Shown here: positions 5,273 through 58,820 of the stretch, in pieces
How positions within the stretch are numbered: position 1 is the first letter of the stretch
Layout: each line of letters starts with the position of its first letter
From: an uncultured Verrucomicrobiae bacterium
GTDB taxonomy: Bacteria > Verrucomicrobiota > Verrucomicrobiia > Limisphaerales > JAFGQR01
Direction: 5' to 3'
Length of the DNA: 64,000 nucleotides
NCBI GenBank assembly: GCA_963788655.1
Contig: CAWBHS010000087.1
Location: 128,001 to 192,000 of the forward strand
Notes under the pieces: model-generated
The model's input: only the letters and a program-made list of their open reading frames with translations
What the model was told of the DNA's origin: nothing
Database searches by the model: none
Position numbers and translations under genes: made by a program

Positions 5273-5290
5273 CCGGGGCAAGTCCTAAGC

Positions 5291-21208: not shown

Positions 21209-21341
21209 TAAGCCTTGGGTTGGGGTTGGGGTTGGGCGTACGGGCACTTCGACAGCGATTTCATTCTTTACGACCTCAAAAAGGATGCCTGGGGGGAGCC
21301 AATTTTGCGGGCGCTGATCCCGGCGGCCAAGCTGTGACCAT

Positions 21342-21665: not shown

Positions 21666-21679
21666 CTACAGGGTTCTAC

Positions 21680-36618: not shown

Positions 36619-36846
36619 CGGTTTTAGGTTCGGCAACAATCGAATGGGTTCGAGAGAAACCTCATGACCTTTCGCGATTCGAGACAGACGTTCTCGGTTG
36701 TCTTGAAGATCCCGAAACCGTCATCGGCATTGGCGAGTAATGTCGAAACGGGTTTCCCTGGACCGTCGGAACTCCTGTTATCCTTTATGGAACTGGGCGC
36801 CAAAAGTAATCTATTCACCAAAGAGGACGCCGCGCAAAGGCATGGT

Positions 36847-38778
36847 TCATTCACCCAACAGCTTGACCAACATCGGCTCAATCGCTTTGGCCAGCACGGC
36901 ATATCCCCGGGCGGTAGGGTGCAGGTAGTCAGCCATCAGTTCGGCTGGAATGCTGCCGTCGGGATTAACGAACTGTTGGCCAATGTCTAGGTAAGTCACG
37001 TTGGCATGCCCTTCCAGTTTGGCAATTCCTGTATTGACGTCCGCCAGCTTTGCCCGGTGGGCGTCCGGGTGCGGCGAACGCGGCAAAATGCCGAGCAGCA
37101 GTATCTTTGTTTGCGGGAGGCAGCGGTGTAATTCGTTACAAAGCGCGCGGATACCCTCGACGATTTCCTCGGGAGTGTTCACGTCGAGATTGTTGGTGCC
37201 GATCAGGACCACGGCCACCTTCGGGGTGGCGTGGTCGAGTTCGCCGTGCCGCAGTCGCCAGAGCACGTTCTCGGTGCGATCCCAACCAAAACCCAGGTTG
37301 ACCGTATTGCGGGGGGCATAGAACTTCTGCCAGACCTCACCGCCATTCACGATCCGGGCGCGAGGTTCGCCGCCGAAAAAATGGGTAATGGAATCGCCAA
37401 TGAACACCAGAGCCGGTTGGCGCTCACGAACAAGCGCGCAGACGGCGGCATGGCGCGCCGGCCAGTCGTAGTTGCGCCAGTCGCGGTTCTGCGTCATGGG
37501 CAGCATGACCGAAGGCGGTCGAACCGGCGCGACTCCCCGCGTAGTGATAGACGAGAAATCAACGCTGGCCACCGGACCGTTGGCTTTATCGTCCGGGGTA
37601 AAGGCCCGCGCCTTGACGGTGCCTTGGTAAGGAAACGGGATCGGCGCGAGATACGCTCCCGCGTCCCGTTGCGGTTCGGAACCATCCAAGGTGTAGCGCA
37701 CGGTAAGATGGGCGGCGATGCACGTGAGGGTTACGTTCCCCTGTTCGTCGCGTTGAATCTCCGGCGCCGGCAACGCGCTGGTCAGGTCGTGGATCCTGGC
37801 TTCCAGATCGTCCGCCCGTTCTTGGGCTTCGGGCAGTGGCAGGCCCCGGTTCATGCCGGGACGCCGGTGGCCGACGGCGGTCAGCCAGGCATCTTTCAGA
37901 AGGCGCTGGCGTTGTTGGACCAGCTTGAACACCGCCGCACCATTCGGCGAGCCGGCGAGCATCTCCTGGGGATTTTCCATGGCGGCGAACTTCCGCGTGG
38001 CCTCGAAATGTCCCAGTAATTGCCGGGCCATCAGCCAATGGCCGGCATCATTGGGGTGGACACCGTCGCCGGCGAAACGAAAACCGGGATCGTGCTGGCG
38101 CTGTTTCGTGAGGAATCGGTTCATGGGGCCGTGCAAATCGATCACCTCCCAGCCGTTGGTGCGTTGGGTTAGCAGCCAAGCGGAGTAGCGATCCAACACT
38201 TGATTGTAGCCTTCGTATGGACGGCGATATTCGGTCAGGCCGGCTGGCAGGGTTTTGCCTTGGAGCGGCAGCGGATCGAAGGTGGGCGGCGTCAGCCAAA
38301 TCAGGCGGGCTCCGGTTCGAGTGACTTGCTCGTGCAACCAGCGAACGCCGGACTGAAACTTATCAAATCGTTCTTCGCTAAACGGGTAGTAGATGCCGTC
38401 GTTCATTCCGTAGCAGGCGAAGACCACGTCCGGCTTGATTTGATGCAGCGCCCGGCTGAGTCGCTCGTGCAAATCCGGCCGTGGGAAGGCGCCCCCAGCA
38501 TGGCCCGGCTCCGTCAGGCCGGACACCGTTTCGCTGGGCAATCCGAGGTTGATGAGCTCGAACGGACGATGATCCGGCAGCAACCGCAGGGCGGTTTCGA
38601 AATACTCCACGTATTGGCCGCTGTAAGTGATGCTGTCGCCGAGGAAGAGGATGCGGCCATTCGGCGCCGCTGGTTCCGCGGCAGCCAGGGGTACCGACAC
38701 CGTGAACAGCAGCAGAGCCAATTGAAATGGCGCAAGCTTCGTCGCTTGCCTTGGGCTTCCACGCAGAATGGATTTCAT
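36847..38778 (-). CDS. secreted double SGNH/GDSL hydrolase with a central chitobiase-C/Fn3-associated domain
   Basis: Two GDSIT..GxN(D/N)..DxxHP sets; linker RYTLDGSEP..Y..PI..VKARAF. Confidence 0.9.
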   Translation of the reverse strand: MKSILRGSPRQATKLAPFQLALLLFTVSVPLAAAEPAAPNGRILFLGDSITYSGQYVEYFETALRLLPDHRPFELINLGLPSETVSGLTEPGHAGGAFPRPDLHERLSRALHQIKPDVVFACYGMNDGIYYPFSEERFDKFQSGVRWLHEQVTRTGARLIWLTPPTFDPLPLQGKTLPAGLTEYRRPYEGYNQVLDRYSAWLLTQRTNGWEVIDLHGPMNRFLTKQRQHDPGFRFAGDGVHPNDAGHWLMARQLLGHFEATRKFAAMENPQEMLAGSPNGAAVFKLVQQRQRLLKDAWLTAVGHRRPGMNRGLPLPEAQERADDLEARIHDLTSALPAPEIQRDEQGNVTLTCIAAHLTVRYTLDGSEPQRDAGAYLAPIPFPYQGTVKARAFTPDDKANGPVASVDFSSITTRGVAPVRPPSVMLPMTQNRDWRNYDWPARHAAVCALVRERQPALVFIGDSITHFFGGEPRARIVNGGEVWQKFYAPRNTVNLGFGWDRTENVLWRLRHGELDHATPKVAVVLIGTNNLDVNTPEEIVEGIRALCNELHRCLPQTKILLLGILPRSPHPDAHRAKLADVNTGIAKLEGHANVTYLDIGQQFVNPDGSIPAELMADYLHPTARGYAVLAKAIEPMLVKLLGE

Positions 38779-39105: not shown

Positions 39106-40032
39106 TTACGTCAATCCCCTCCAGGGTTCAGTGGACTGAGCAGCAGCAGTCTGGAAGGCTTCTCGAAGTTTCTTCACGGCCGCCTCGGGCAGGGGCCCTT
39201 TGGCGGCGGCGCGCAGATTGGCTTCGGCGTTCTTCGGATTGGTAGTGCCGACGATGGCGGTGTGGACCCCGGGTTGGGCCAGAGTGAAGCGCAAGGCGAT
39301 CTCGGGCCAGACTTCCGCTGGTGGACCGTCGAATCCCAAATCCGCTGGGCTGAGTTTCATCTGCTGCAACCGCTCTTCGTAGGACTTCCCGTAGCCGTCA
39401 TAAATGCCGGGCCGGTTGGTATTCCAGGCAGCATTGGCGATGGGCCGTTTGGCGATGACCCCAATCTCCCGCTCGCGCGCGGGTGGCAACACGGCGTCAA
39501 GGTTGGCCTGGTCGCATACATTGATCGAGGTTTCGATGACCGCGATTTCCGCCAGATGGGCGCTGTAGGCGGCTTCCTCGTTGTCGCCCGAGTACCCGAT
39601 GCAGCGTACCTTGCCCGCGTCGCGAGCTTTGACCAGGGCGGCGAGGGCATCGACCTGCTTCAACACCGGCAGATCGCACGAGTGCAACAGCATCACATCC
39701 AGATGGTCGGTCCGCAGCCGGCGCAACGCGCGCTCCACGGTTTGGGTGATGAGTTCGGGCGACCATTCCGCGCCCGTCACGCCTTCCACCTGATGACCGC
39801 ACTTGCTGACCAGCACAAACTCGTCGCGCCGATGACCAACCGCCTTGCCGATAAGTTCCTCGGAGGCCTGGTAACACGCCGCGGTGTCGATCAGGTTCAC
39901 GCCGCGGTCCAGCAGCAGATTGAGAATCCGCTCCACCTGGCGTTGTTCGGCGTCCAAATACCCAATGGGTCCGGCGCCAAACCCGATGGGCGCCACCTCG
40001 AATCCTGTTTTTCCAAATGCTCTACGGTCCAT
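39106..40032 (-). CDS. aldo/keto reductase
   Basis: FGKTGFEV..IGFG, IDTAACY..SEELIG, SKCG, RLRTDHLDVMLLH. Confidence 0.93.
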   Translation of the reverse strand: MDRRAFGKTGFEVAPIGFGAGPIGYLDAEQRQVERILNLLLDRGVNLIDTAACYQASEELIGKAVGHRRDEFVLVSKCGHQVEGVTGAEWSPELITQTVERALRRLRTDHLDVMLLHSCDLPVLKQVDALAALVKARDAGKVRCIGYSGDNEEAAYSAHLAEIAVIETSINVCDQANLDAVLPPAREREIGVIAKRPIANAAWNTNRPGIYDGYGKSYEERLQQMKLSPADLGFDGPPAEVWPEIALRFTLAQPGVHTAIVGTTNPKNAEANLRAAAKGPLPEAAVKKLREAFQTAAAQSTEPWRGLT

Positions 40033-40466
40033 AACCTTTTTATTATGGATGGATTAGCTGAGTTGGCAAGACCCAGTTGCGGGGGCGGGGGCAGATGGCC
40101 TCCTGGGCTGATGGCTGGCATGGAAGCGATCAGCGGTTTGGCCCCGAATCCGGATGCGGATTGGGTGGCGGATTACTGGATTGAAAAGACCGGGTTTTTG
40201 GACGAACGTAGTCCGGCGATGCCTCGCGCCGTGACTCAACGCCGCAGAGGTGTCACCGGAAAATGACAGAGGAAGCGTTCCTGGCGAGGCGGGAAAGGAC
40301 CATCGGTTTCTCACCCGCGCCTGCAGGGAATGGCGATCCGATTGGACACGATGAAGCAGCGCTCACAACTGGGGAACGTTCCGGGGCGTTCCGAGCGTGG
40401 CGGCCAGGATGGCTCAACCCTCCGCTGCCCGCGGCGCCCCGTAGCGCGATCAACCGCCTTCCGGCC

Positions 40467-41150
40467 ATGACCACAGCGGCCGTTACCAAACCCCATCGCG
40501 GCAAGGCTCGCCTCCTGTTGGTGGAGGATCATCCGGTGACGCGCGAGGGATTCGCCCAATTGATCAATTACCAGTCGGACCTCCGCGTTTGCGGCCAGGC
40601 CGGCCGTCCGGGCGAGGCCCTGGAGCAAATCGCCGCCACCCGACTGGATTTGGTGGTGGTGGATATCACCCTCGCGGGCGCTTGCGGGATCGATTTGACG
40701 AAGCAGATTCACAAGCGCTTTCCCGCGTTGCCGGTTCTGATTTTGTCGGCGCACGACGAGGAGTTTTACGCGGTGCGCGCTTTGCGCGCCGGGGCGCGCG
40801 GTTACGTCATGAAGTTGACGCCCACTGCCGAGATCCTGTCGGCCATCCGGCAGGTGCTGCGGGGGGAAGTGTATCTGAGCGATTTCATGAGTTCGCGCGT
40901 GTTGCGTCAATTGGTCAAAGACGGAACGCCGGTCCGCGTTTCGGAGATGGAAGCGCTGAGCGACCGGGAACTGGAAGTCTTCCGCCTGGTGGGCCAGGGC
41001 TGGGGCACCCGCCGCATTGCGCAAACGTTGCATGTCAGCGTCAGCACCATTGAGACCCATCGGGCGCACATCAAGGAGAAGCTCAACCTGCCCAGCGGCG
41101 CCGATTTGGTGCGGCGCGCCATCGAGTGGACCACCACGACGTCGCGCTGA
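40467..41150 (+). CDS. NarL/LuxR-family DNA-binding response regulator
   Basis: LLVEDHP, VVVDI, GYVMK; LSDRELEVFRLVGQG..IA..L.VS.STIETHR. Confidence 0.95.
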   Translation: MTTAAVTKPHRGKARLLLVEDHPVTREGFAQLINYQSDLRVCGQAGRPGEALEQIAATRLDLVVVDITLAGACGIDLTKQIHKRFPALPVLILSAHDEEFYAVRALRAGARGYVMKLTPTAEILSAIRQVLRGEVYLSDFMSSRVLRQLVKDGTPVRVSEMEALSDRELEVFRLVGQGWGTRRIAQTLHVSVSTIETHRAHIKEKLNLPSGADLVRRAIEWTTTTSR

Positions 41151-41304
41151 TCGGGGTTCGCTTTGGTACGGAAGCTGGTTCCCGGTCCGCCGATTGCGTA
41201 AGCCCGCTAAGCCTGAGCGATGGCGGCCATCGCGGATTCCACGACCATCAAAATCAGGGGCCGCACGATTGTTGCCCCCACCGGACGAGTTAGAATACGA
41301 GCCG

Positions 41305-41931
41305 ATGGAAACAATGTTATCAGGAAGGAATGGGTATGGATTGGATCGGGGGGAAGCGCCGAGGAGTCTGCGCGTGGCGGTCGTGTATGAAAACTTGGCG
41401 GCGGGCCAGGAGGCGCGGGCGTTGGTGGACTACCTCATGACTGAATTGGCCAACGACTGTCGCTGGGTTCAGGGCGCCTGGCGCTTCGACCTCCTGGGGC
41501 TGGGGCCATTCGCGGCGGCCGCGGCGCGGGAAGTCAGCCAGGCGGAGATCCTCATTGTTGCCGCCCAGCAAGCCACGCTGCCCGAACCGGTCCTGCAATG
41601 GTTGGCGCAAGTGCTGCCGCGCTGCAAACCGGGGGCAATGTTGATCGGATTATTTGATCACCACGCCACCGCCACCAGCGCGGAGCTGCCAATCCAGTTC
41701 CAGCTCCAACAACTCGCCAGATCGCGCGGACTCGCCTACATTTCGCGAGCCCTCGAGATGAGTTCGACGGCGCCGCCACCGCCGCCGAAGGTCGAACTGG
41801 CGCCAACCGCCACCGCCGGAGCATCCCCAGCCTTGCCGACCTTGCCCTTGACCGGGCCCAGGGGGGAAGGGGTGGGCGGCTCCCATGAGGCCGACCGCCG
41901 GCTGCAGCGGTGGTGGAGCATCAACGAATAG
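41305..41931 (+). CDS. hypothetical protein, paralog of 1475-2071
   Basis: 208-aa ORF between two response regulators; VAVVYE, WRFDLL, AEILIVA; ends WWSINE. Confidence 0.8.
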   Translation: METMLSGRNGYGLDRGEAPRSLRVAVVYENLAAGQEARALVDYLMTELANDCRWVQGAWRFDLLGLGPFAAAAAREVSQAEILIVAAQQATLPEPVLQWLAQVLPRCKPGAMLIGLFDHHATATSAELPIQFQLQQLARSRGLAYISRALEMSSTAPPPPPKVELAPTATAGASPALPTLPLTGPRGEGVGGSHEADRRLQRWWSINE

Positions 41932-42084
41932 GCGCTGGCGTTCGCCACTCGACGTTCGTCTAATGCAAGGAAACTGCCGTTTTCCACCTGTCCTCGCCAG
42001 CGGGCCGGCGTCGCGGTTCGGATCGTGTCCGGCCTCCGGCACGCTTTCACCATGAAGTGCCACATGTTTTAACGCCCACATCTT

Positions 42085-42492
42085 ATGAATGAAGCTGCTG
42101 TTTCGACTGTCGCCGCCAATCCTTCCCCTTCGTTGCGTCTCGCGCTGGTGGTGGATGACGACGTGATGGTCCGCCATTTTGTGGCCTTGTGTCTGCGGCA
42201 CGCACAGTATCAAGTGCTCGAGGCCGCTGACCCTTTGGAAGCCCAGCGACTGGTCTGCCAGAATCCGACAATTCACCTGGTCGTTACCGATTGCCAGATG
42301 CCCGAGATGAACGGGGCCGCGCTGGCTGAATGGTTTCAGACGACGTGGCCGCAAATCAAAGTCCTGCTCATGTCCGGCTCGCCAGGAATGGAGGCGTTGA
42401 TCCAGGAGGCCTTGTCCCCCGCCGCTTTCCTGGCCAAACCCTTTAACCGCGATCAATTGCTTCAGCAGGTGCGCACGCTTGAATTTGCTTAG
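42085..42492 (+). CDS. single-domain response regulator (CheY-like)
   Basis: LVVDDD, VVTDCQMPEMNG, LMSG, FLAKPF. Confidence 0.92.
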   Translation: MNEAAVSTVAANPSPSLRLALVVDDDVMVRHFVALCLRHAQYQVLEAADPLEAQRLVCQNPTIHLVVTDCQMPEMNGAALAEWFQTTWPQIKVLLMSGSPGMEALIQEALSPAAFLAKPFNRDQLLQQVRTLEFA

Positions 42493-42768
42493 CCGTATCA
42501 ATTCGGCTGGTGGTGGGGCGGGCTGCTGCGTCGCCCTGATTTTTTACCGACGTTTGGACCACGAACCTTCGGCAACCCGGCACGGTTTGGTGAGTGAGCC
42601 ATGGTCGATCCCTGACGCCAAAGTGCCTCAGTTGCCGGCGGAACGCGCAGTTCCGCCCGACCGCAATTGGGGCCAAAAGTCCAGCAATTCTCAATTTGGA
42701 GGCGAAGCGCCGGCTTGCAGCCGGCTTTGCCCTAAGAAACGGCGAGCATTGACCAATCTTCGGACGGC
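42492..42768. mobile_element. possible degenerate family B MITE
   Basis: Left end GCCGTATCAATTCGG matches family B ends; right end only ACGGC; TTA on both sides. Confidence 0.35.
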
Positions 42769-42868
42769 TTAAGCTGATTACAAATCGGCGCTCCGCCAAA
42801 ATGCGAATTGCCACGAAAGGTCGGGTTCCCTGGACAAAACCGGACCCGGCCTGTAAGGAGAGGGCCTG

Positions 42869-43387
42869 ATGATGAGATTGGGACAAGCTTTTAGTGTGTT
42901 CTTCCGCCTTCTGCGGGACGCGGCCTTTGCCGAACGGGTGGCGCAGGCCGAGCAATTGCCGGCGTCCGAGCCCGGCGCCAGCGCGGCTACACCACCGGCG
43001 CCTCCACGAAGCGACGCGCTGACCTTGCTGGGCGTGTTGCAGCGGGAGGGGCGGCTGGTGGATTTCTTGCAGGAACCTATCGCCACGTATTCCGACGCCC
43101 AAATCGGCGCCGCCGTGCGCGACGTCCACCGCGGTTGTCGGACGGCACTGGAGCGCCTGTTCGGGTTGGTCCCGGTGCTCGACCAGGCTGAAGGCGCGGA
43201 GGTGCGGGTGGAAAAGGGTTACGATCCGGGCCGCCTGCGCCTTACCGGACAGGTAACTGGCAGCCCACCGTACCAAGGCACATTGTTTCATCCGGGTTGG
43301 GCCGCGACCCGCTGTGAATTGCCGGAATGGACGGGCAGCGCCGCGACGGCGCTGGTGGTGGCACCTGCCGAAGTGGAAATCAAATGA
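42869..43387 (+). CDS. DUF2760-like protein (putative divergent GrpE-like factor)
   Basis: ALTLLGVLQREGRLVDFLQE..YSDAQIGAAVR.VH.GC, GYDP, HPGW, VAPAEVE; first gene of the Hsp70 operon. Confidence 0.85.
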   Translation: MMRLGQAFSVFFRLLRDAAFAERVAQAEQLPASEPGASAATPPAPPRSDALTLLGVLQREGRLVDFLQEPIATYSDAQIGAAVRDVHRGCRTALERLFGLVPVLDQAEGAEVRVEKGYDPGRLRLTGQVTGSPPYQGTLFHPGWAATRCELPEWTGSAATALVVAPAEVEIK

Positions 43388-43475
43388 TGCCCGGTCGGTC
43401 TTCGTTGCCAACACCATTTCGAGCTTGTTTGCGGGACAGTTTGGATTATCACCCCAATGAGGACGCACAAGGTTC

Positions 43476-43528
43476 GGAGTTCCGCCTTCAGGCGGTCGGA
43501 CCGTCCTGCCGCCTAAAGGCGGAACTCC
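43476..43528. repeat. REP doublet hairpin
   Basis: GGAGTTCCGCCTTCAGGCGG / CCGCCTAAAGGCGGAACTCC. Confidence 0.8.
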
Positions 43529-43601
43529 CAACAGGAATTTTTAAACTATACCCTCCGCCGTTCGGTGTTTTACTGGCGAATAGGGAACCAAAGGATTTTT
43601 G

Positions 43602-45374
43602 ATGCCAGCCAAATTTTCAGTCGGTATTGATTTGGGAACCACGAACAACACCATCGCGTGCGTAGAACTCGGACGCGAGGACGCGCCGTTGCAAGTTCTC
43701 AACGTCCCACAACTCACCGCGGCGGCAACCGTCGAAGATCGGCCGTTGCTACCTTCGTTTATGTATCTGGGCACGCCGGAGGAAGTGGAGAAGAATGTTT
43801 TCAATTTGCCCTGGGGCAGTCCTCCGTACGCCATCGGCGAATGGGCCCGCCGGCAAGCCGCCGAGGTGCCGGCGCGCACCGTCTCCGGTGCCAAATCCTG
43901 GCTGGCCCACAGCCGGGTGGACCGACGCCAGCCCATCCTGCCTTGGAACGCGCCTGACGAGGTGCCGAAGATTTCTCCGGTCGAGGCCTCGCGTCGTTAC
44001 CTGGAACATTTGATGGCAGCTTGGGCAAAGCATTATCCCGACACGCCGATCCAGGAGCAACAGGTGGTGCTCACGGTGCCGGCATCCTTCGATGCCGCCG
44101 CTCGCGAACTGACCCGGGAAGCTGCTTTGCAAGCCGGCTTGCCGGAAGACTTGGTTCTACTCGAAGAACCGCAAGCCGCGTTCTATGCCTGGCTGGCCGA
44201 TCACGAGCAATCCTGGCGCAAGCTCGCTCAAGAAGGCGACGTGGTGCTGGTCTGCGACGTCGGCGGCGGCACGACCGATCTGACGTTGATTTCGGTGACG
44301 CAGGAGAACGGTGAGTTGTCGCTCAAGCGCCTGGCGGTGGGCGATCACATTCTCGTGGGTGGCGACAACATGGACCTCACGTTGGCCCATTTGGCGCAGG
44401 GTGTGTTTGCCGAAAAAGGGGTCAATCTGGATGCCTGGCAATCGGTCGCGCTTTGGCACGCGTGCCGGACGGCCAAGGAAGCGTTGCTGGCGTCCGACGG
44501 CCCGCAAAACCATCCGGTCACCGTTCTGGGCCGCGGCCGCAAGGTCATTGGCGGCAGCATCTCGGCGGACCTGACGCAGGACCAGGTGATGCAGACGTTG
44601 ACCGAAGGCTTCTTCCCGTTGGTTCCGTTCGAGGCGCGGCCGGCGCGACGGGCGGCTTCCGGCTTTCGCGAACTGGGCTTGCCCTTCGAATCGGACCCAG
44701 CCATCACGCGGCATCTGGCCAGTTTCCTCAATCGACAGGGCCGCACCCGCCCCACGCACCTGTTGTTCAACGGCGGCGTGTTCCGCGCGGACTTCTTTCG
44801 CCGACGACTGTTGGAGACGCTGGCGGGTTGGTTCGGCACCGGCGCGGCGCCGCAAATCCTCGCGGGCAACACCGATTTCGATTTGGCCGTGGCGCGCGGC
44901 GCGGCGTATTACGGACGCACCAAGCAAGTCGGCGGCATTCGCATCCGTGGCGGCGCACCGCGTTCGTATTACGTCGGCATCGAAACGGCCGGTCCCGCAG
45001 TTCCCGGTGCGGTCCGTCCCCTCCAGCAATTATGCGTGGTGCCCATGGGCATGGAAGAAGGCTCGTCGCTCGACATTCCCAGCGGCGAGATTGGACTCAT
45101 CACCGGGGAGCAATCGCAATTCCGGTTCTTCAATTCTTCCATGCGCAAAGATGCGCCGGGCACGTTGTTGAAAAGCTGGTCGCCGGAGGAGTTGGTGGAA
45201 ACCGATTCGCTGGTGGCCACGTTGCCGGCGGCGGGGGGTGCGGCCGGTGATTACGTGCCGGTGCGGTTCCAGGCCAAATTAACCGAACTGGGGGTGCTGG
45301 AGTTGTGGTGCGCGAGCACCGTTTCCGATGACCGCTGGAAACTGGAATTCAGTGTGCGTGAACCAGGGCAGTAA
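43602..45374 (+). CDS. atypical Hsp70-family ATPase
   Basis: VGIDLGTTN, AKSWL, TVPASFD, LEEPQAA, DVGGGTTD, GGDNMD, LAVARGAA; non-canonical C-terminal domain. Confidence 0.92.
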   Translation: MPAKFSVGIDLGTTNNTIACVELGREDAPLQVLNVPQLTAAATVEDRPLLPSFMYLGTPEEVEKNVFNLPWGSPPYAIGEWARRQAAEVPARTVSGAKSWLAHSRVDRRQPILPWNAPDEVPKISPVEASRRYLEHLMAAWAKHYPDTPIQEQQVVLTVPASFDAAARELTREAALQAGLPEDLVLLEEPQAAFYAWLADHEQSWRKLAQEGDVVLVCDVGGGTTDLTLISVTQENGELSLKRLAVGDHILVGGDNMDLTLAHLAQGVFAEKGVNLDAWQSVALWHACRTAKEALLASDGPQNHPVTVLGRGRKVIGGSISADLTQDQVMQTLTEGFFPLVPFEARPARRAASGFRELGLPFESDPAITRHLASFLNRQGRTRPTHLLFNGGVFRADFFRRRLLETLAGWFGTGAAPQILAGNTDFDLAVARGAAYYGRTKQVGGIRIRGGAPRSYYVGIETAGPAVPGAVRPLQQLCVVPMGMEEGSSLDIPSGEIGLITGEQSQFRFFNSSMRKDAPGTLLKSWSPEELVETDSLVATLPAAGGAAGDYVPVRFQAKLTELGVLELWCASTVSDDRWKLEFSVREPGQ

Positions 45375-45392
45375 CGTGTTTTTTGGCAGACG

Positions 45393-48206
45393 ATGAAAGC
45401 CGTGAAACTTGAGCCTTCGGTCGAAGATCGTCCGGCCCGCTTCCTGGTCGGCATCGACTTGGGCACCACCAATTGTGCCGTGGCCTACGTGGACACCGCG
45501 CAGGCCGAACCGCACGTGCGCGACTTTCCGATCTCGCAAGTCGTGGCGCCCGATGAGGTCGAGGTGCGCGATGTGTTGCCGTCATTCAGCTACGCGCCGG
45601 CCTCGGAGGAATTTACCGTCAGCGCTTTGCCGAAGGCTAACGACCATGATGGCAAGTTTGTGGTCGGCTTCTTTGCGCGCGAACATGGGGCGCAAGTTCC
45701 GGGACGTTTGATTGCGTCCGCCAAATCCTGGTTGAGTCATCCGGGCGTGGACCGCACCGCCGCGTTGCTGCCGTGGCACGGGGCGCCGGATGTCGTCCGC
45801 GTTTCGCCAGTCGAAGCGAGCGCGCGCTACCTCGAGCACATTCGGCGGGCGTGGGAAAACGCTTTCCCCGGGCAACCGTTGGCGGAACAGGAGGTCACCG
45901 TCACCGTGCCGGCTTCCTTTGACGAAGTGGCGCGGACGCTGACTGTGCAAGCCGCCGAGCGGGCGGGACTGCCACACATTACGTTGCTGGAGGAACCCCA
46001 GGCGGCCTTTTACGCGTGGATGGCCGGTTGCGGAGCAGTGGCCGAGCAGGCGGTCCGACCGGGGCAACTCACTTTGATTTGCGACGTGGGCGGCGGGACC
46101 AGTGATTTCACGCTGATCGAAGCGCGGGCGGCAGAACAGGGCGGCGTCCGTTTTCATCGCGTGGCGGTGGGCGAACATCTCATCCTGGGCGGCGACAACA
46201 TGGACCTGGCCCTGGCGCACCACGTGGAATCGCGTTTGCCGGGCGGCGGACGATTGGATCCGCGGCGCTGGGGGTTGCTGGTGCAATCGTGCCGAACGGT
46301 CAAAGAGACGTTGTTGGCTCCCCAACCGCCGGATCGCTTGAGCGTTCATGTCGCCGGCGGCGCGCGATTGATTGGCGGCGCCCTTCAGGTGGAAGTCACG
46401 CGCGAGGAAGTTCAATCGGTGTTGCTGGATGGCTTCTTTCCGCGTGTGCCCCTGGAGGCCAAACCGGCGGTGCGATCCGGCTTCCAGGAATTCGGTTTGC
46501 CGTACGCCGCGGACGCCGCCATCACCCGGCACCTCGCGGCGTTTCTTACCCGGCACGCGACCAATCGGCGTCCCGACGAACCCGGCGCTCCGTTTCCAGA
46601 CCGGCTGCTGTTCAATGGCGGCGTCTTTGAATCGCCCCTCATCCGCGAACGTTTGCTGGCCGTGCTGGAAGACTGGCGGCAGACAGCCCAAGCCCCGGAC
46701 GGTCCGGCCCTTGAGGTATTGCCGAATGACCGTTTGGATTTAGCGGTGGCGCGAGGCTCCGCTTATGCCGCCCTGTTGCGGCGCCAGCACGGACGGCGCA
46801 TCGCGGCAGGATTGGCCCGGGCGTATTACGTCCAGGTCGGGCGCGAGGCGGCGAAGGAACCCGCGACGGTTTGCCTGGCGCCCGCGGGGTTGGAGGAAGG
46901 ACATCCGATTGTGCTGCCGCAGCGGTTTGCGTTGCGCATCCGACAGCCGGTCGAGTTTGCGCTCTTCAGTTCGAGCACCCGGTTGCAGGATCGCGCCGGC
47001 GACCTGGTGGCCGCGGACCCCGCCCAACTGACGCCGTTGCCGCCGGTCCGCACCGTGGTCAAGTCCGGACGTTCGAGCAAAGCCAGCACCGCCGAGGTGC
47101 AATTGCACGCGCGTCTCAGCGAGATTGGCACCCTCGACGTGCGGTGTGTGGAACCCGAAGGCCAGCGTTCGTGGAAACTGGAATTTGACGTGCGCGGTTC
47201 CAAGCGCGGCGTTCGGCGCGTGGCTGCGATTGGCGCGCCGATGGCAGACGGTGCCATCGAAGAAGCCACCGTCGAGGCGGCGCGGGATTTGGTCCTCCAG
47301 ACTTATCAAGCGGGCGACCGGGGAATAACGGCCGATCCCGCAAGACTGGTGAAGCAATTGGAAGAAGCGACCGCGTTGCCCCGCGACCAATGGCCGTTGC
47401 CTCTGTTGCGCGCTTTATGGGAAACGCTCCTCGAGGTTGAGCCCGGACGCCGTCTCAGCTTGCTGCACGAAACGCGCTGGCTGAACCTGCTGGGATTTAG
47501 CTTGCGGCCGGGCTATGGATTCACCGTCGATGACTGGCGCGTGCAGCAGACTTGGAAGTTGTTTTTTGTCGGCACCGTGTTTCCAAAAAATGAGCTTTGT
47601 CGCGCCGAATGGTTGATCCTCTGGCGGCGAATTGCGGGCGGACTCAGTGCCGGCCAACAGCGGGCGCTGGCCGAACCTTGCGCCAGCCTGTATCGGCCCA
47701 AAGGTGGTCGCAAGCTTCATCGTGGTCTGCATGAAACCGCAGAAACGTGGCGGCTGCTGGGCGCTCTGGAATTGCTGGGCGTCGAACTCAAGCTGGAGAT
47801 CGCCGAGCACCTCGCTCACCGGTTGGAACGTAAGCTCGAACCGCCCGTCCTCCAGGCTGCGTGGTGGGCCTTTGGACGGCTGGGCGCGCGGGTGTCCGCG
47901 TATGGCCCGCTAAACGCCCTGGTGCCGACGGAGACGGTTGAAGACTGGCTATCCCGCATTATTGCCCGTCCGCCAGCCCATGCGGAAGCCCTGTTCACTG
48001 CGGTGCAAATGGCCCGCGCGACCGGCGACCGCTATCGCGACATCGCGGAGGAAACGCGCGCCGCCGTGCTGGCGTGGTTACGACAACACGATGCGCCTGA
48101 GCATTATTTGCAGCTTGTCCGCGAGGGCGGGCAACTGGACCAGACAGAAGAGCAGCAAGCGTTCGGCGAAACCCTGCCGCCCGGATTGCATCTGGAGAAC
48201 GAGTGA
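45393..48206 (+). CDS. atypical Hsp70-family ATPase with long helical C-terminal extension (DUF3731-like)
   Basis: Same motifs as the upstream paralog, plus WLNLLGFSLRPGYG..DDWR, WRRIAGGL, ARATGDRYRD, FGETLPPGL. Confidence 0.92.
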   Translation: MKAVKLEPSVEDRPARFLVGIDLGTTNCAVAYVDTAQAEPHVRDFPISQVVAPDEVEVRDVLPSFSYAPASEEFTVSALPKANDHDGKFVVGFFAREHGAQVPGRLIASAKSWLSHPGVDRTAALLPWHGAPDVVRVSPVEASARYLEHIRRAWENAFPGQPLAEQEVTVTVPASFDEVARTLTVQAAERAGLPHITLLEEPQAAFYAWMAGCGAVAEQAVRPGQLTLICDVGGGTSDFTLIEARAAEQGGVRFHRVAVGEHLILGGDNMDLALAHHVESRLPGGGRLDPRRWGLLVQSCRTVKETLLAPQPPDRLSVHVAGGARLIGGALQVEVTREEVQSVLLDGFFPRVPLEAKPAVRSGFQEFGLPYAADAAITRHLAAFLTRHATNRRPDEPGAPFPDRLLFNGGVFESPLIRERLLAVLEDWRQTAQAPDGPALEVLPNDRLDLAVARGSAYAALLRRQHGRRIAAGLARAYYVQVGREAAKEPATVCLAPAGLEEGHPIVLPQRFALRIRQPVEFALFSSSTRLQDRAGDLVAADPAQLTPLPPVRTVVKSGRSSKASTAEVQLHARLSEIGTLDVRCVEPEGQRSWKLEFDVRGSKRGVRRVAAIGAPMADGAIEEATVEAARDLVLQTYQAGDRGITADPARLVKQLEEATALPRDQWPLPLLRALWETLLEVEPGRRLSLLHETRWLNLLGFSLRPGYGFTVDDWRVQQTWKLFFVGTVFPKNELCRAEWLILWRRIAGGLSAGQQRALAEPCASLYRPKGGRKLHRGLHETAETWRLLGALELLGVELKLEIAEHLAHRLERKLEPPVLQAAWWAFGRLGARVSAYGPLNALVPTETVEDWLSRIIARPPAHAEALFTAVQMARATGDRYRDIAEETRAAVLAWLRQHDAPEHYLQLVREGGQLDQTEEQQAFGETLPPGLHLENE

Positions 48207-48268
48207 GCAGGGATCGCGGACGAATCATACTTGCCACGGCTGGACGAAAAACTTTCGCTCTCGCCTGA

Positions 48269-48460
48269 GCCATATCTATGAAATGGTGGCTGGGGAGCGC
48301 GCCCGCCTCGGGCGCTGCCAATCGGCGCCCTCGCCAGTTGGCCCAGCGATTGAGCAATCACTGAAAAGTGAGCCAATCGGGGTGCTCGAAACTGGTTGGC
48401 GAGGCGCCAACCACAGCGCCCGAGGCGGGCGTGCTCCCCTGGTGATTGAATTGTTACGGT
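48269..48460. mobile_element. MITE-like element with family B ends (192 bp) carrying a different REP doublet
   Basis: Ends GCCATATCTATGAAA / TTGAATTGTTACGGT, flanked by TGA on both sides; internal arms at 48292-48317 and 48414-48439. Confidence 0.65.
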
Positions 48461-48613
48461 TGAGGAGGATTCTTCCTATATCGGCATTCGGCGCGCCAAG
48501 TTGGAGTTGAGGAATTAGGTTCCATAAGTTTTTTCAGGAGAGAGGGTTTTGGCTCGGTGGGTGCTATCCAACGGCCCGGGATTGAATCATCTGGTGCATC
48601 CCATGGAATACTT

Positions 48614-51600
48614 ATGAAAGGTAGCCTGATCTTCGTGCTGACCCTGGCATTGTTTGCCGATACGTACCTTGCTCCTGCACAGGTAACGAACCTTCTGGTG
48701 GAAGATAGTTTTGACGGTTTAGCGGGAACCCTTCCCGAAGCCGACAAGTTTGAATGGGGCGGCCAAATCGGCGCTGAACGGTTCCAGTCAACTCGCACTT
48801 TCCACCGATACGGCCAACCGATCCTGGGTGCTTTCCAAAGCCGGGGCGGCACACCGGGCGAGGGCCAAACGCTGGTTCTGCATATACGGGCTTACGCCTA
48901 CGCGGAGAATTGGAATCCAGGCGTGTATGGCGACAAACAACCGCGCGGCTTGCGGGTGGGAAGCGATGCGAACAACGCCATTGAATTCTACTCACTCTCC
49001 CGCACCAGCCTTGGCTTGCGCACGAGCAAAGACGGAATTGAATCCCTGGCGTCCTTCGCCCTGCCATCCGGGGTGGATTCGATGCATGATTACGAAATTT
49101 CCGTGACCACCACGTCGGTAAATTTTCGGGTGGATGGCGTGTTGGCGGGGACGTTAACTGATAACATCCCGACGGGGGTGCTGAACGCGCATGTTGCCAC
49201 CTATGACGGCGGCGCGGGGAACGTGCCCGTTACCCTGGACCGCCTCTCGCTGTTTCTCGCTGGCAGTCCGGTGGCAAAACCTCCGGCGATCAAAGGCTTT
49301 GCGCCAACGCACGGTGCGGTCGGGGCGAGCATCGCCATTACCGGCACAAATTTCAATGGCATCACCGCAGTTCGTGTTGGTGACGTGGAGGCCGCATTTG
49401 CCCACGACTCGGCGTCGCTGATCACTGCGGTGGTGCCGGCCACGGCGACCACGGGTTTGATCACCGTCGTTTCAACGAATGGCACCGCTGTCAGTTCAAG
49501 TAACTTCGTGGTGGACGTCCTGGATTTTACATACACGACCGACAACGATACTGTTACCATCACCGGCTACACTGGTTCCGGCGGGGCTGTGACCATCCCG
49601 AGGGCGATCAATGATTTGCCAGTCACTAGCATCGTGGGGTATTTCGGTCCGCAATGGCAAAACGTGACCGGCATCACGATTCCCGACACGGTCACCAACA
49701 TTGGAGATTATGCTTTTTATGGATGCACGACCCTGACCAACGTCGTCATCCCCGAGAGCGTGATCAGCCTGCGAGAGGCGGCGTTTGCCAACTGCAGCCG
49801 TCTGCCGGGCGTCACCATTCCCAACCATGTCACCAGTATCGGCGATAGTGCATTCCTTCGCTGTGTGAGCCTGACCAACGTCACGATCCCCGACAGTGTC
49901 GTGAGCCTTGGCTTCCAATCGTTCCAGGAATGCAGTGGCCTGGCTCAAATCACGTTCGGAACCAACCTGGCCAGTATCGGAAATGTGGCGTTCAATCAAT
50001 GCCCCCGTCTAACCACCGTGCTGATCCCTGCCAGCGTCACCAACCTCGGGAATTATGCGTTCATGTCGTGCTATAATCTGCGCGGATCCTTTTTCGAAGG
50101 CGACGCCCCCGCAGGGGCAGGGATGGCGTTCCTCAATGATAACCAGGCCACGGTTTACTACCTGCCAACGACGACGGGATGGAGCGCGAACTATGGCAGT
50201 CGCCCGACCACATTATGGCCGGCCCCGGTGATCACGAGTTTCTTGCCAACTATCGGAGCGGTCGGCACGAGCATCACCATCAACGGTACATACTTTACCA
50301 CCGTCACGGCCGTTCAGTTCAGCGGCGTGGTCGCAGCGTTTGCGGTTGTCTCGGACACACAGATTGTCGCCACGGTCCCGGGTAACGGGGTTTCCGGTTC
50401 GATCACCATTTCCAATCCCGGCGGGGCGGCTGTCGGTGCCACTCCGTTTATTGTTCCTACGCTCATCGCCACAAGCGATGAAGCGAGTCTGGATGCCGCC
50501 GTGTCGAACCATATCGGGGTCGGGCTTTTTACCTGCGATGGGACGATTGAAGTTTCGACGACCAAGGTGATTTCGTCGGACCTCACGCTGGATGCGGCCG
50601 GCCACCGCATCACGATCAGCGGCGGCAACGCCATGCGGGTGTTCAGTGTCGATCCTGGGGTTCATTTAAACTTACAAAACTTGACCATTGCCAACGGCCA
50701 GGGCACCTCGCTGGGCGGCGGAATTTACAATAACGGCGGCATCGTGACGCTCGTGGACTGCACCCTCACCAACAACACCGTCGTCGGCACGGCTGATGGA
50801 GGTCACAGTCTGGGCGGAGCTATCGGTAACACCAACGGATGGTTGGTCCTGAGCAATTGCACCTTCGCCTACAACCGCGCGGTCGGTGGCATCGGCTCTC
50901 CCGGGCCGACTGGCGGCGGGACCGGACGCAGTGGTGGCTACGGCCAGGGTGGGGCGATTGGTAATGCCGATGGCACGGTCGAGATGGTCAACTGCACCTT
51001 CGCTGGTAACCAGGCGATTGGAGGAGCCGGTGGGACTGGCGGACGCGGGGCCAATGGTTATCAATACTGGGTGTCAGTCCCGTGGCCGGGCACCGGATAT
51101 TACGCCACGGTCCCCGGCGGTCCGGGCGGGCACGGTGGCAACGGTGGCAACGGGGTTGGCGGCTCGTTGCGAAACAATGGCGGTACAATGACGATGGTCA
51201 ACGTGACTCTGGCCCGCGGTTCAGTGGTTGGGGGCACCGGCGGTTCACCGGGTGCTCCCGGCGATTTTGGCACTGGCAACTATGGGCCAGGAACTTCCGG
51301 CTACAACAGTTCGGGCGGCAACCTTAGTGTTGGTTCGGGAAGCGTAATATCGAAGAACACGATTATTGCTTATGGCAGCGGCAACTCCGGATACAATTGC
51401 TCGGGAACCATGGTTGATGACGGGAACAACCTCTGTTCGGATGCGACCGCCAATTTTTCCAAAGCCAGCAGCTTGAACAATGTGGACCCCCTCCTGGCGG
51501 CTGAGTTGGCGGCCAACGGCGGTTCGACCCTGACTCTCGCCCTTTTGAGTGCTAGCCCGGCCATCAATGCCGCTGACGATGCGGTGGCCCCAACTGCCGA

Positions 51601-52031
51601 CCAGTGCCACCTGCCACGCGCCGGTCTGAGTGATATTGGCGCTTTCGAATTTCAAAGCCCGGCGTCGGCTATCTCGTATGCCTGGCTGCAATACTACGAC
51701 CTCGCCACGGACGGGTCGGCAGACCAGAACGATTCTGATTTGGACGGCATGAACAATCTGAGGGAATGGCTGGCCGGCACCTGTCCGACCAACGCGATGT
51801 CGTGTCTCATGATGTTATCTCCGACCGCGACCGAGTCGGGAGTCGTAGTGCGCTGGGCCAGTGAAACCGGCAAGCGGTACTGCAGTCCAACGCAGCACCA
51901 CCCTCGGTGCCACAGCGTCGTTCTCTACGTTGACGAGCAACATCGTTGGACAACCCGGCACCACAACTTACCTCGACACCAACGCCGTTGGTTCCGGGCC
52001 TTGCTTCTATCGCATAACCATCCAGCCATAA
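48614..52031 (+). CDS. secreted surface protein: IPT/TIG domains, BspA-type leucine-rich repeats, Gly-rich beta-helix, C-terminal FYR domain (frameshifts near 48768/48850 and 51884)
   Basis: Signal peptide; IPxSVTxIGxxAFxxC repeats; DPLL..LA.NGG.T.T.ALL..SPAI.A..DIGAFE; corrected frame ends GPCFYRITIQP at TAA 52029-52031. Confidence 0.88.
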
Positions 52032-52110
52032 CCTTGGTTCAGCGGCATCAATGATGCCGTCGTCCGTTACCCGCGGACGCTCCGCGAAACAATGTCGAAC
52101 AGTGAACCTG

Positions 52111-52284
52111 TCATTTTAATAGCTCGGCATCTTCCAGAAAGGTTTTGAACTTGAGCGCATCCAACCGACGCTTTTCGGTGTCGTCCAGGACGGAGAGTTC
52201 CGGGAAGCCCAAGGCCTCGGACACGGCGGCGCCCCCCGTCAGAGATCGGGTCACCGAGGTGATTCTGAATATCTGGTTCGGCAT
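52111..52284 (-). CDS. small hypothetical protein or gene remnant (57 aa)
   Basis: ATG..TGA ORF MPNQIFRITS...KRRLDALKFKTFLEDAELLK with protein-like composition; below the ORF-track cutoff. Confidence 0.35.
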   Translation of the reverse strand: MPNQIFRITSVTRSLTGGAAVSEALGFPELSVLDDTEKRRLDALKFKTFLEDAELLK

Positions 52285-52376
52285 GGCGTCGTTGTAACGC
52301 TGCGGAAATTAGCAGCGTCGAGGGGTGGTGAGAATTGGGGCAAGAAGCGTTTCCGAAACGACGGGATGATTCGACG

Positions 52377-52413
52377 AAAGCAAAAGGAAACCGGACTTGC
52401 GTCCGGTTTCCTT
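52377..52413 (-). terminator. rho-independent terminator
   Basis: Minus strand: GGAAACCGGAC-GCAA-GTCCGGTTTCC followed by TTTTGCTTT, 40 bp after the stop at 52454. Confidence 0.85.
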
Positions 52414-52453
52414 GCCCTATCCGTTAAACCGCTGGGTGGTGGCCCAGATTCGA

Positions 52454-58339: not shown

Positions 58340-58820
58340 AGGGTAAACTGGATTCGAATTGCAGATGGATCGCTCGGCTTCGCGAACAGAAATGCCGTTA
58401 TCCGTTAGACCCGAGCGGCGGCATTGGTCCTCGGCTGAGGATCGCCGGCGCAGAATAGGGTGCAGGGGAACTGACGGGGTTCGCCGATGCTGACGACGCG
58501 TTATATGGTGCTACTTGGTTGACTACCCCCTGGGCAGCGTGGGTGGTAATGACCACTTCGGGCATACCAATACGCAGTGACAACAGCGCCCCACAACGAC
58601 AGATTGATAGTCAGGTTTGACTTTGAGTGCGAGGCAGTGAACCACGTCACCTTGTCGAAAGCAATAGCTAATTGCAATAAACTTTAACCAGTATTGATGC
58701 TTCTTAACGGAATAACTCCCTTGGCGATGAAATCCTGGTTTCCGGCCGCCTGGAATTCAACAAACCGGTCAGGGATGGGCCTGCTAATACGCCACTGTGA
58801 TCAGGGATTTGACGGGGAAT

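Follow-up and report, generated by a model that had tools for sequence, protein, structure and literature searches.

A conserved DUF2760-Hsp70-Hsp70 gene trio suggests a non-canonical Hsp70 machine whose small partner may be a membrane tether

What is known of bacterial Hsp70s rests on DnaK, HscA and HscC, each of which has J-protein partners. The locus described here, in which a small DUF2760 protein (D) is followed by two paralogous Hsp70s (H1 and H2), is a fourth, widespread bacterial Hsp70 arrangement and is almost unstudied; literature searches with DUF2760, DUF3731, PF10816 and PF12531 returned no work. We propose, tentatively, that the three conserved genes encode a non-canonical Hsp70 machine in which D most likely serves as a membrane-tethering adaptor or co-factor and not as a GrpE. 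The arrangement combines two paralogous ATPases, one lidless and one predicted to bear a peptide-binding-type solenoid, with a partner whose predicted fold is unmatched among solved structures. Working out the trio would show an Hsp70 cycle running on a different set of co-factors.

The locus and its distribution

The window, by which we mean the whole stretch of 64,000 nucleotides that was analysed, contains at 42869-48206 on the plus strand three adjacent open reading frames, D, H1 and H2, whose stop-free translations are 172, 591 and 937 aa long, as the original prediction had placed them. That prediction had further described a possible self-contained module without a J-domain gene, and this was borne out. 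No DnaJ or GrpE domain was found by 42 Pfam queries representing 41 distinct ORFs of the window, a scan that took in ORFs of at least 90 aa, except one of 92 aa (36627-36902), and none that were shorter. The HPD tripeptide was absent from D, H1 and H2, and a GrpE gene was found neither in the window nor in 80 related loci.

The same 80 loci show that the module is conserved. D lies directly upstream of H1 in 57 of them: the full trio is present in 28, D and H1 only in 19 (each with 3.5 kb or more of sequence visible downstream), and D and H1 are cut by the contig end in 10. D stands alone, with no Hsp70 within the sequence seen, in 17 loci, and the flanks are too short in the remaining 6. The 17 loci without an Hsp70 and the 19 in which H2 is absent within 3.5 kb suggest that the parts do not always stay linked. 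At two plasmid loci with annotation, the stop of D overlaps the start of H1. We found no genuine D-Hsp70 fusion, and two candidates look like frameshift read-throughs. A separate HEAT-repeat protein of about 290 aa occurs in six Desulfobacterota-type loci, in five of them downstream of D and a single Hsp70 and in the sixth (L050) directly after D, with no Hsp70 found; thus, a solenoid recurs as the third part of the module.

A DUF2760 profile search gave 2129 clusters at 50% identity, and a search with the single D protein gave 6025 clusters at 90% identity. The arrangement was seen in Planctomycetota, Verrucomicrobiota, Fibrobacterota, Myxococcota, Desulfobacterota-type MAGs, and Alpha-, Beta- and Gammaproteobacteria, and the trio order is also annotated in Bradyrhizobium and Comamonadaceae plasmids and in Myxococcus xanthus. 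One Bradyrhizobium plasmid carries groES-groEL roughly 1 kb downstream of the trio.

Two paralogous Hsp70s that lack the DnaK lid

H1 and H2 had been called paralogous ATPases with intact nucleotide-binding motifs, and both points held. Their alignment (604 columns, E 7e-138) shows 42% identity and spans the motifs YYV, PxGxEEG, ELGxL..C and WKLEFxVR, and the nucleotide-binding motifs were confirmed by profile alignment to DnaK and by comparison among relatives of H1 and H2. H1 (43599..45374, plus strand; PF00012 at 2.9e-16, residues 79-298), whose true start is likely the ATG at 43602, consists of a nucleotide-binding domain (NBD) to about residue 443, a GGIRIRGG linker and, from about residue 453 to its end at residue 591, an SBD-beta-like domain. 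The H1 profile aligned by hhalign with residues 3-405 of E. coli DnaK (probability 99.4, E 3.4e-21), taking in the NBD, the linker and the first SBD-beta strand. In this alignment K99, E190, D220, T225 and D227 of H1 match K70, E171, D194, T199 and D201 of DnaK, and the phosphate-1 motif is conserved. Among 38 relatives of H1 the catalytic residues show little or no variation. The protein stops with the last strand of the beta-sandwich, so that it has no helical lid (SBD-alpha).

H2 is an Hsp70 of 937 aa (PF00012 at 1.6e-13, residues 137-309) that ends in DUF3731. Its NBD (residues 1-465; 45393..46787, plus strand) has ATPase motifs that are nearly invariant in 59 relatives. An AF2 model of residues 466-937 (pLDDT 88.8, pTM 0.83) places strands at model positions 12-134, forming an SBD-beta-like eight-strand sandwich at residues 477-599 (46821..47189, plus strand), for which Foldseek returned the DnaK SBDs 3dpp_B (E 2.1e-3, probability 1.00), 1dkx_A, 7krw_A and 9dvi_B. 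The C-terminal domain of H1 is homologous to that of H2 by their alignment, and on this basis H1 carries a divergent DnaK-type SBD-beta sandwich. The original prediction had taken the domain to be shared by the two proteins and to be non-DnaK; it is shared, but model, Foldseek and hhalign all make it a divergent DnaK-type sandwich. An acidic P-x-G-x-E-E-G loop is invariant in the sandwich of both Hsp70s.

C-terminal to the Hsp70 part of H2 is DUF3731 (PF12531 at 1.2e-79, residues 691-934; 268.1 bits against a gathering cut-off of 25), which is modelled as an armadillo/HEAT-like alpha-solenoid of sixteen helices at residues 624-923 (47262..48161, plus strand). The Trp-rich helical extension of about 330 aa that had been noticed earlier takes in this region: it is 336 aa long, contains 12 Trp, is predicted to be all-helical, and occupies the place of the DnaK lid. 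The best Foldseek matches for the solenoid were designed armadillo-repeat proteins (6s9n_A, E 4.5e-4, probability 1.00), importin-beta 1qgr_A and importin-4 5xah_D. With two domains in the query, the matches for the C-terminal model reached only modest E-values, from 4.5e-4 to 7e-3, and their TM-scores were low. Taken together, H1 and H2 have the NBD of the Hsp70 superfamily (PF00012), with its phosphate-1 and phosphate-2 motifs and catalytic Lys, Glu and Asp, and the SBD-beta, but not the alpha-helical lid, and their best NCBIfam equivalog scores, 84.5-84.8 bits, lie far under the cut-offs of 620 for the HscA subfamily and 648-822 for DnaK.

The trio has in common with DnaK-DnaJ-GrpE the actin fold of the NBD, the catalytic residues, the interdomain linker, the SBD-beta sandwich and a small partner gene upstream. 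It differs in that its locus has no J-domain or GrpE gene, its partner is unrelated to GrpE, H1 is lidless, and H2 has a predicted solenoid in place of the lid.

D is a DUF2760 protein without profile or fold similarity to GrpE

D (172 aa; 42869..43387, plus strand) is a member of the DUF2760 family (PF10816 at 5.7e-48, residues 48-170; 162.3 bits against a gathering cut-off of 25). The protein begins with a pair of helices, hydrophobic and basic (residues 1-29); a Pro/Ala-rich linker (residues 30-48) joins them to the conserved core (residues 49-172), in which three helices are followed by five short strands. The AF2 model (pLDDT 89.0) has helices at 2-16, 18-29, 49-61, 63-68 and 76-98 and the five strands within 100-146. 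Q58, R59, E60, R62, D65, F66, E69, H141, G143 and W144 are invariant in 56 D sequences.

The original prediction had read D as a GrpE-like protein. GrpE is dimeric, with a long helix that dimerises, a four-helix bundle and a C-terminal beta domain, and the DUF2760 family differs from it in having an N-terminal hydrophobic helix or TM segments, the Pro/Ala-rich linker and a globular core. When a 56-sequence DUF2760 profile was compared by hhalign with E. coli GrpE, the probability was 0.1, and with an 8-sequence GrpE alignment it was 0.06 (E 0.73). GrpE (PF01025) was not listed among Pfam matches of D at E<=10, and a PDB-sequence profile search with D gave 0 matches at E<=10. Foldseek of the D model against the PDB gave 0 matches at E<=0.001, the best having E 1.1 and probability 0.12, and there was no GrpE among the matches listed (about 45 of 270 weak ones). 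The profile comparison, the PDB profile search and Foldseek give no support to D as a GrpE relative. An unrelated predicted fold had been named beforehand as the first part of the outcome that would overturn the prediction, and by these results the predicted fold of D is unrelated to that of GrpE; as modelled, its core has no match among solved structures.

D might still serve one or both Hsp70s as a dedicated nucleotide-exchange factor, with a new fold, possibly membrane-bound and without GrpE ancestry. D and H1 are near-constant neighbours in the related loci, neither those loci nor the window contain a GrpE gene, and the helical half of D leads into a small beta half. The parallel that had been drawn between a motif of D and GrpE recurs in the best hhalign segment, where LERLFGLVPV of D is paired with K-FGV..I of GrpE, but this segment is insignificant and the parallel is without statistical support; BLASTP matched 22 residues of D to residues 79-100 of E. 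coli GrpE (E 0.009 in a single comparison). HscA and other specialised Hsp70s of bacteria are not known to require an exchange factor, and Hsp110, a paralogous Hsp70 partner, supplies nucleotide exchange, so that H2 could do the same here. Given this, the absence of profile or fold similarity to GrpE, and a tether-like build that does not by itself imply exchange activity, we consider an exchange-factor role for D unlikely.

The N-terminus of D may be a membrane tether

We compared the N-termini of the best 150 of the 2129 representative DUF2760 clusters. The helix is kept in 117, is replaced by two or more TM-like segments in 18 and by one in 6; 4 of the others are truncated and 5 are built otherwise. 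The long DUF2760 forms P0242 and P0244 likewise have hydrophobic TM-like stretches upstream of the core. Where present, the helix has a median net charge of +2 and the consensus LAFRxFFRxL, a hydrophobic core with basic flanks. Its hydrophobic moment exceeded that of 95% of shuffles in only 13 of the 117 helix-bearing representatives (median z 0.8). The helix is hydrophobic and basic, and its amphipathicity is weak; for this reason the case for a membrane location rests mainly on the TM-bearing variants. The TM-like segments that stand in place of the helix in 24 of the 150 clusters suggest, from sequence, that the N-terminus of D acts as a membrane tether.

The same helix could instead be a tethered pseudo-substrate or regulatory peptide that sits in the SBD-beta of either Hsp70 and thereby controls the machine, with the TM variants as a derived special case. 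A hydrophobic core flanked by basic residues is the classical pattern of a DnaK-binding peptide, both Hsp70 sandwiches keep the invariant acidic loop, and the helix is weakly amphipathic. However, replacement by TM-like segments is easier to explain by membrane attachment, and we regard the pseudo-substrate role, like that of exchange factor, as improbable.

A proposed mechanism

If D is a tether, its N-terminus would anchor it at the cytoplasmic face of the inner membrane, and its core, through the invariant charged helix (Q-R-E-x-R-x-x-D-F), could dock onto the near-constant neighbour H1, which would concentrate the H1 ATPase at the membrane. H2 might pair with H1 as Hsp110 does with Hsp70 and might also act as the exchange factor; its solenoid would hold a peptide in extended form from one specific client or partner. 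ATP cycling would then drive the binding and release of a narrow range of clients near the membrane, in stress or during differentiation, in a machine that would run without J-protein or GrpE genes in its locus. The complete version of this scheme, a J-protein- and GrpE-independent heterodimer of a lidless Hsp70 and an Hsp110-like solenoid paralogue, with a new-fold DUF2760 adaptor at the inner membrane, acting in stress or differentiation to remodel or extract one particular class of clients close to the membrane, is doubtful.

Parts of the scheme have counterparts in known systems. In mtHsp70-Tim44 and E. coli DjlA, a small membrane-associated protein holds Hsp70 at the membrane; D, if it is located there, would resemble them in function. 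Hsp70-Hsp110 (Ssa-Sse1) is also a pair of Hsp70-fold paralogues, the longer of which has an extended C-terminal helical region, a three-helix bundle, and by analogy it offers a model for H2 as exchange factor of H1. Unlike that pair, H2 has an extension predicted to be an ARM-like solenoid, and both paralogues of the window keep their ATPase motifs.

A probable counterpart in Myxococcus xanthus

MXAN_5321-5322-5323 encode a DUF2760 protein, a 620-aa Hsp70 and a 925-aa hsp70, with gaps of 61 and 25 nt, and the three genes are similarly expressed, at FPKM of about 60-74 each (PMC8265645). The annotation, the order of the genes and their lengths make it probable that this system and the trio of the window are the same, and it is carried by a harmless, genetically tractable organism. 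Deletion of MXAN_5323 left cells viable and growing normally, with less sporulation and lower H2O2 survival, and MXAN_5323 did not rescue an E. coli dnaK mutant (PMC8265645). Because three unrelated Hsp70 deletions in the same study show similar phenotypes, these are not specific. In the available text of PMC8265645, MXAN_5323 is treated as a lone Hsp70, with no discussion of either the operon or the DUF2760 gene; a literature search with the locus tags of the trio found work on only this one of the three genes.

Defence and general stress as alternatives

The module might be an anti-phage or conflict system with the Hsp70 and solenoid as sensor, as proposed for CnuD in CoCoNuT. CnuD has the same order of Hsp70 NBD/SBD and alpha-solenoid, the solenoid sometimes being separately encoded as in our Desulfobacterota-type loci, so that the architectures are parallel (PMC11090510). 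In addition, D and an Hsp70 of Thiodictyon plasmid pTs485 lie, by annotation, among anti-phage DUF1156, anti-phage PLD, VapC, Uma2 and TIR genes, and the trio is present on two conjugative Bradyrhizobium plasmids. CnuD, however, is associated with genes for a McrB-like GTPase, McrC and HEPN, and its Walker-A-like motifs are degenerate (PMC11090510), whereas the ATPase motifs of the trio are intact and the 42 Pfam queries of the window found no McrB-like GTPase, McrC/DUF2357, HEPN or other effector gene. A defence-like island surrounded only one (pTs485) of four plasmid loci inspected. PADLOC-DB 2.0.0 gave 0 families for D, H1 and H2, and among 126 of the 139 selected nearest-neighbour proteins 18 had matches at E<=1e-5; these were mostly generic (ABC/AAA ATPases, SNF2 helicase, cysteine-desulfurase-like, protease-domain) or weak single-domain matches, and four were the HEAT partners themselves. 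Moreover, 0 of 50,697 phage records and 11 of 72,556 plasmid records matched, the latter mostly megaplasmids or chromids, and the M. xanthus deletion phenotypes arise without phage (PMC8265645). A defence role is therefore very unlikely.

Just as poor is the chance that H1 and H2 are general stress chaperones, redundant and without a client or location of their own, and D a minor accessory, since the similar mild phenotypes of four non-canonical M. xanthus Hsp70 deletions and the groES-groEL neighbours on one Bradyrhizobium plasmid are set against the failure of MXAN_5323 to rescue the dnaK mutant (PMC8265645), equivalog scores of about 84 bits, and the strict conservation of D, lidless H1 and solenoid across several phyla, which argues for a specialised assembly.

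A hairpin between D and H1

The 211-nt spacer between D and H1, which has a median length of 64 nt in the 57 related loci, contains a strong predicted RNA hairpin (43472..43532, plus strand). It matched no Rfam family and is specific to the window. The fold of 43465-43540 has an energy of -45.7 kcal/mol (z -7.19), with none of 200 shuffles equally stable, and the stem carries a perfect 12-nt inverted repeat with arms at 43476-43487 and 43517-43528.

Gene layout and family assignment

Three consecutive genes on the + strand of the window encode a DUF2760 protein and two Hsp70s. The first, D (42869-43387, +), is a 172-aa ORF assigned to DUF2760 (Pfam PF10816, 5.7e-48). H1 (43599-45374, +) is a 591-aa ORF with a Pfam Hsp70 match of 2.9e-16, and H2 (45393-48206, +) is a 937-aa ORF in which an Hsp70 match (1.6e-13) is combined with DUF3731 (PF12531, 1.2e-79), which covers the last 250 residues. 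The Pfam Hsp70 match in both proteins is confined to the middle of the nucleotide-binding domain (NBD). D is separated from H1 by 211 nt, and the H1 stop from the H2 start by 18 nt. In NCBIfam, H1 and H2 scored about 84 bits against at least 620 for every DnaK/HscA cut-off and D had no model; none of the three proteins has a PADLOC model. The component families are already catalogued, as domains of unknown function. Our literature search, with most subscription journals outside it, found nothing on DUF2760, DUF3731, PF10816 or PF12531, and nothing relevant on atypical or lidless bacterial Hsp70s among the matches listed. An antisense 362-aa ORF (42443-43531, -) spans the DUF2760 gene from end to end; Pfam matched nothing in it, and it probably arises from the high G+C content.

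D does not resemble GrpE

The original prediction held that D is a GrpE-like exchange factor and proposed a direct profile comparison. We aligned E. coli grpE with seven diverse plasmid-borne grpE genes and compared DUF2760 with them using hhalign. No significant similarity was found, either to E. coli GrpE (probability 0.1) or to the eight-sequence GrpE profile (probability 0.06, E 0.73). The best, insignificant, segment pairs the very motifs that had suggested the likeness, and BLASTP gave a 22-residue match of D to GrpE with E 0.009 for one comparison; both are at chance level. An AlphaFold model of D from 56 relatives (pLDDT 89.0) begins with two helices (residues 2-29), which lead through a linker of low complexity to three further helices (49-98) and then five short strands (100-146). 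Searched with Foldseek, this model had 0 PDB matches at E≤0.001 (best E 1.1, probability 0.12), with no GrpE chain among the matches listed, and no grpE gene was found in the window or in 80 related loci. Taken together, the profile and model comparisons indicate that D is not GrpE-like.

Other identities for D were also sought. The family profile matched nothing among PDB sequences at E≤10, Pfam at E≤10 gave DUF2760 alone plus one noise match (0.11), and the ESM Atlas matched D to DUF2760 clusters alone and gave no usable result for the DUF3731 region. Single-sequence PDB matches to TAL effectors (E 2.5e-4 to 1e-2) rest on one 25-residue stretch of D (86-110) repeated in the target, and 0 stretches pass singly. 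Because these matches vanished with the family profile, the resemblance is one of chance, amplified by the target's repeats.

H1 and H2 are paralogous Hsp70s with different C-terminal ends

Over 604 alignment columns, as far as a last motif WKLEF.VR, H1 shares 42% identity with H2. A profile built from 38 relatives of H1 aligned with residues 3-405 of E. coli DnaK (probability 99.4, E 3.4e-21), that is, with all of the NBD, the linker between the domains and strand one of the substrate-binding domain (SBD). The H1 linker GvRIRGG falls opposite the hydrophobic linker of DnaK, and YYVGIET opposite LSLGIET in the first SBD strand. Both families keep the phosphate-1 motif and the residues corresponding to DnaK K70, E171, D194, T199 and D201 with little or no variation, and H1 and H2 therefore look like working ATPases. 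These results bear out the prediction of two paralogous Hsp70s with intact nucleotide-binding motifs.

The C-terminal domain common to both proteins had been described as unlike that of DnaK, and here the model of H2 points the other way. Residues 466-937, modelled from a 60-row alignment (pLDDT 88.8, pTM 0.83), form an eight-strand beta-sandwich, then a disordered linker and then sixteen helices. Foldseek matched the sandwich to the DnaK SBDs 3dpp_B (E 2.1e-3), 1dkx_A, 7krw_A and 9dvi_B with probabilities of 0.96-1.00, and the helical part to designed armadillo-repeat proteins, importin-beta and importin-4 (best E 4.5e-4, probability 1.00). E-values were modest and TM-scores low, the latter because the query holds two domains. 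We read the shared domain as a probable divergent SBD-beta, and the DUF3731 region of H2 as a predicted ARM/HEAT-like solenoid in the position of the lid. H1, whose domains were assigned by homology to H2 and by the profile alignment to DnaK, would end where SBD-beta ends, without a lid.

Gene order is conserved and an alpha-solenoid recurs

A scan with one genome per species confirmed DUF2760 at 584 loci, of which we retained the 80 best. Judged by record title, about 60 of these are from Planctomycetota; the rest are from Verrucomicrobiota/Kiritimatiellia (7), Fibrobacterota (4), Desulfobacterota-type (6), Myxococcota (2) and Rokubacteria (1) genomes. D, H1 and H2-DUF3731 occur in this order in 28 of the 80. 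D and H1 alone were found in 19 loci with 3.5 kb or more visible downstream and in another 10 cut off by the contig end, D without an Hsp70 in 17 with at least 2.5 kb on either side, and flanks were too short to judge in 6. Median spacers are 64 nt between D and H1 (n=57) and 61 nt between H1 and H2 (n=27). No further neighbour recurred in these 80 loci, the next commonest cluster being a generic ABC ATPase (9/80).

Six Desulfobacterota-type loci (L050, L052, L060, L061, L068 and L077) carry a separate HEAT-repeat protein of ~290 aa (for example, L061:11233-12108). In five of them its gene comes after D and one Hsp70, and in L050 it lies directly after D, with no Hsp70 found. The single Hsp70 of this variant is ~45% identical to H1 and to H2 alike. 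Comparison of DUF3731 with the stand-alone HEAT proteins by hhalign gave a probability of 0.27, so that no homology is detectable between them, although both are solenoids. Given the DUF3731 solenoid in H2 and the separate HEAT protein in six loci, an alpha-solenoid is a recurring third component, fused or free.

Of 72,556 plasmid records, 11 contained DUF2760; none of the 50,697 phage records did. The full trio, annotated as "DUF2760 domain-containing protein", "Hsp70 family protein" and "hsp70 family protein", is found on two Bradyrhizobium conjugative plasmids (L094, L096) and one Comamonadaceae plasmid. One Bradyrhizobium trio is preceded by a MarR regulator and lies beside trb transfer genes, and groES-groEL is found ~1 kb downstream of the other. 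Thiodictyon plasmid pTs485 (L093, locus 1-14360) carries a D+Hsp70 pair in which stop and start overlap.

A presumed counterpart in Myxococcus xanthus

The Stk locus of M. xanthus, which we took to be a possible match, is a different operon, since StkB is SCP2-like and StkC is a small PhaE-like protein. Adjacent genes of M. xanthus DK1622 are listed in a published data set as MXAN_5321 (DUF2760, 6624209-6624835, +), MXAN_5322 (Hsp70 family, 6624897-6626759, +) and MXAN_5323 (hsp70 family, 925 aa, 6626785-6629562, +), each with an FPKM of about 60-74 in normal growth (PMC8265645). From annotation, order and length, rather than sequence comparison, we infer that they are orthologous to the trio. 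The accessible text of that study, the only one that our search (most subscription journals outside it) returned for these locus tags, describes deletion of MXAN_5323 and makes no mention of an operon. Growth, motility, predation and fruiting bodies were normal in the mutant, sporulation was reduced, the lag was longer and survival lower after 1.5 mM H2O2, and MXAN_5323 did not rescue an E. coli dnaK mutant (PMC8265645). Deletions of three other non-canonical Hsp70s gave the same mild phenotypes (PMC8265645), which are therefore not specific to MXAN_5323.

A possible mechanism

The DUF2760 profile collected 2129 representative clusters at E≤0.001. The N-terminal helix of D is kept in 117 of the best 150, with a consensus of roughly M-R-L-x-L-A-F-R-x-F-F-R-x-L and a median net charge of +2. 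It is replaced by at least two hydrophobic TM-like segments in 18 clusters and by one such segment in 6; the N-terminus is truncated in 4 and otherwise different in 5. The exchange of the helix for predicted TM segments suggests membrane attachment. The hydrophobic moment of the helix exceeded 95% of shuffles in just 13 of the 117 clusters. Given such weak amphipathicity, we term the helix hydrophobic and basic, and we retain a rival reading, in which it would serve as a tethered pseudo-substrate for an SBD; the TM-like replacements argue for the membrane. Behind the helix come a Pro/Ala-rich linker, variable in length among clusters, and a core in which one helix bears invariant charged residues (Q58, R59, E60, R62, D65, F66 and E69). 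We sought D-Hsp70 fusions so as to read the interface off one chain. Among 21 proteins in a search for longer D proteins, both domains occurred only in P0262. The garbled Arg/Pro-rich stretches of P0262 and P0258 are typical of frameshift read-through, and these database proteins thus look like frameshifted gene calls rather than genuine fusions.

As a membrane-tethered adaptor, D would dock on H1 through its core. H1 and H2 would act jointly, with H2 perhaps providing exchange in the style of Hsp110, and the H2 solenoid would bind a client or partner through an extended peptide segment. The machine would then work on specific membrane-proximal clients during stress or differentiation. The anatomy of the domains, their conservation, the synteny and the lack of likeness between D and GrpE are results; every contact, the membrane site and the client belong to the model. 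We regard this mechanism as a whole as tentative, plausible yet somewhat short of probable.

A defence role for the trio is a minor alternative. The combination of Hsp70 NBD/SBD with a HEAT-like part recalls CnuD, the Hsp70-like protein of CoCoNuT systems, but CnuD is accompanied by McrBC-type genes and HEPN and bears degenerate ATPase motifs (PMC11090510), neither of which is true of the trio. The Thiodictyon pair, one of four plasmid contexts inspected, sits in a neighbourhood whose annotations include an anti-phage DUF1156 protein, a PLD-like anti-phage protein, the toxin VapC, the endonuclease Uma2 and a protein with a TIR domain. Of the wider set of loci, 18 of the 126 nearest-neighbour proteins scanned (of 139) matched PADLOC at E≤1e-5. 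These matches were mostly generic (ABC and AAA ATPases, SNF2 helicase, cysteine-desulfurase-like and protease-domain proteins) or weak single-domain ones, and four were the HEAT partners themselves.

Possible regulatory elements and other genes in the window

The D-H1 spacer, 211 nt in the window versus a median of 64 nt in related loci, contains a very stable hairpin (43472-43532; -45.7 kcal/mol, z -7.19) with a perfect 12-nt inverted repeat, and a copy of one arm with one mismatch lies at 2964-2975. It may have arrived as a REP-like insertion; alternatively, this hairpin may act within the operon as an attenuator or stabiliser and so set the ratio of D to Hsp70. Rfam gave no family within 40000-50000, and promoter and terminator scans did no better than shuffles. 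Upstream of the trio, the same strand encodes two response regulators, one of NarL/LuxR type with an ~80-aa N-terminal extension (40263-41150) and one single-domain receiver (42085-42492). Since other loci do not keep this pair beside the trio, a regulatory connection is unproven.

At 8795-14846 (-), a CHASE2 sensor fused to an adenylate/guanylate cyclase domain adjoins TPR and FecR-domain proteins, and these genes may form a signalling cluster. Giant predicted surface proteins are encoded at 15311-29256 and 48557-63434: an HYR/Ig protein of 1829 aa, an LRR_5/TIG protein of 1165 aa, Ig/CBM96 proteins of 1961 and 1421 aa, and lamin-tail-domain proteins of 1105 and 1423 aa, the last with a CotH kinase domain. 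Such proteins are typical of Verrucomicrobiota or Planctomycetota genomes.
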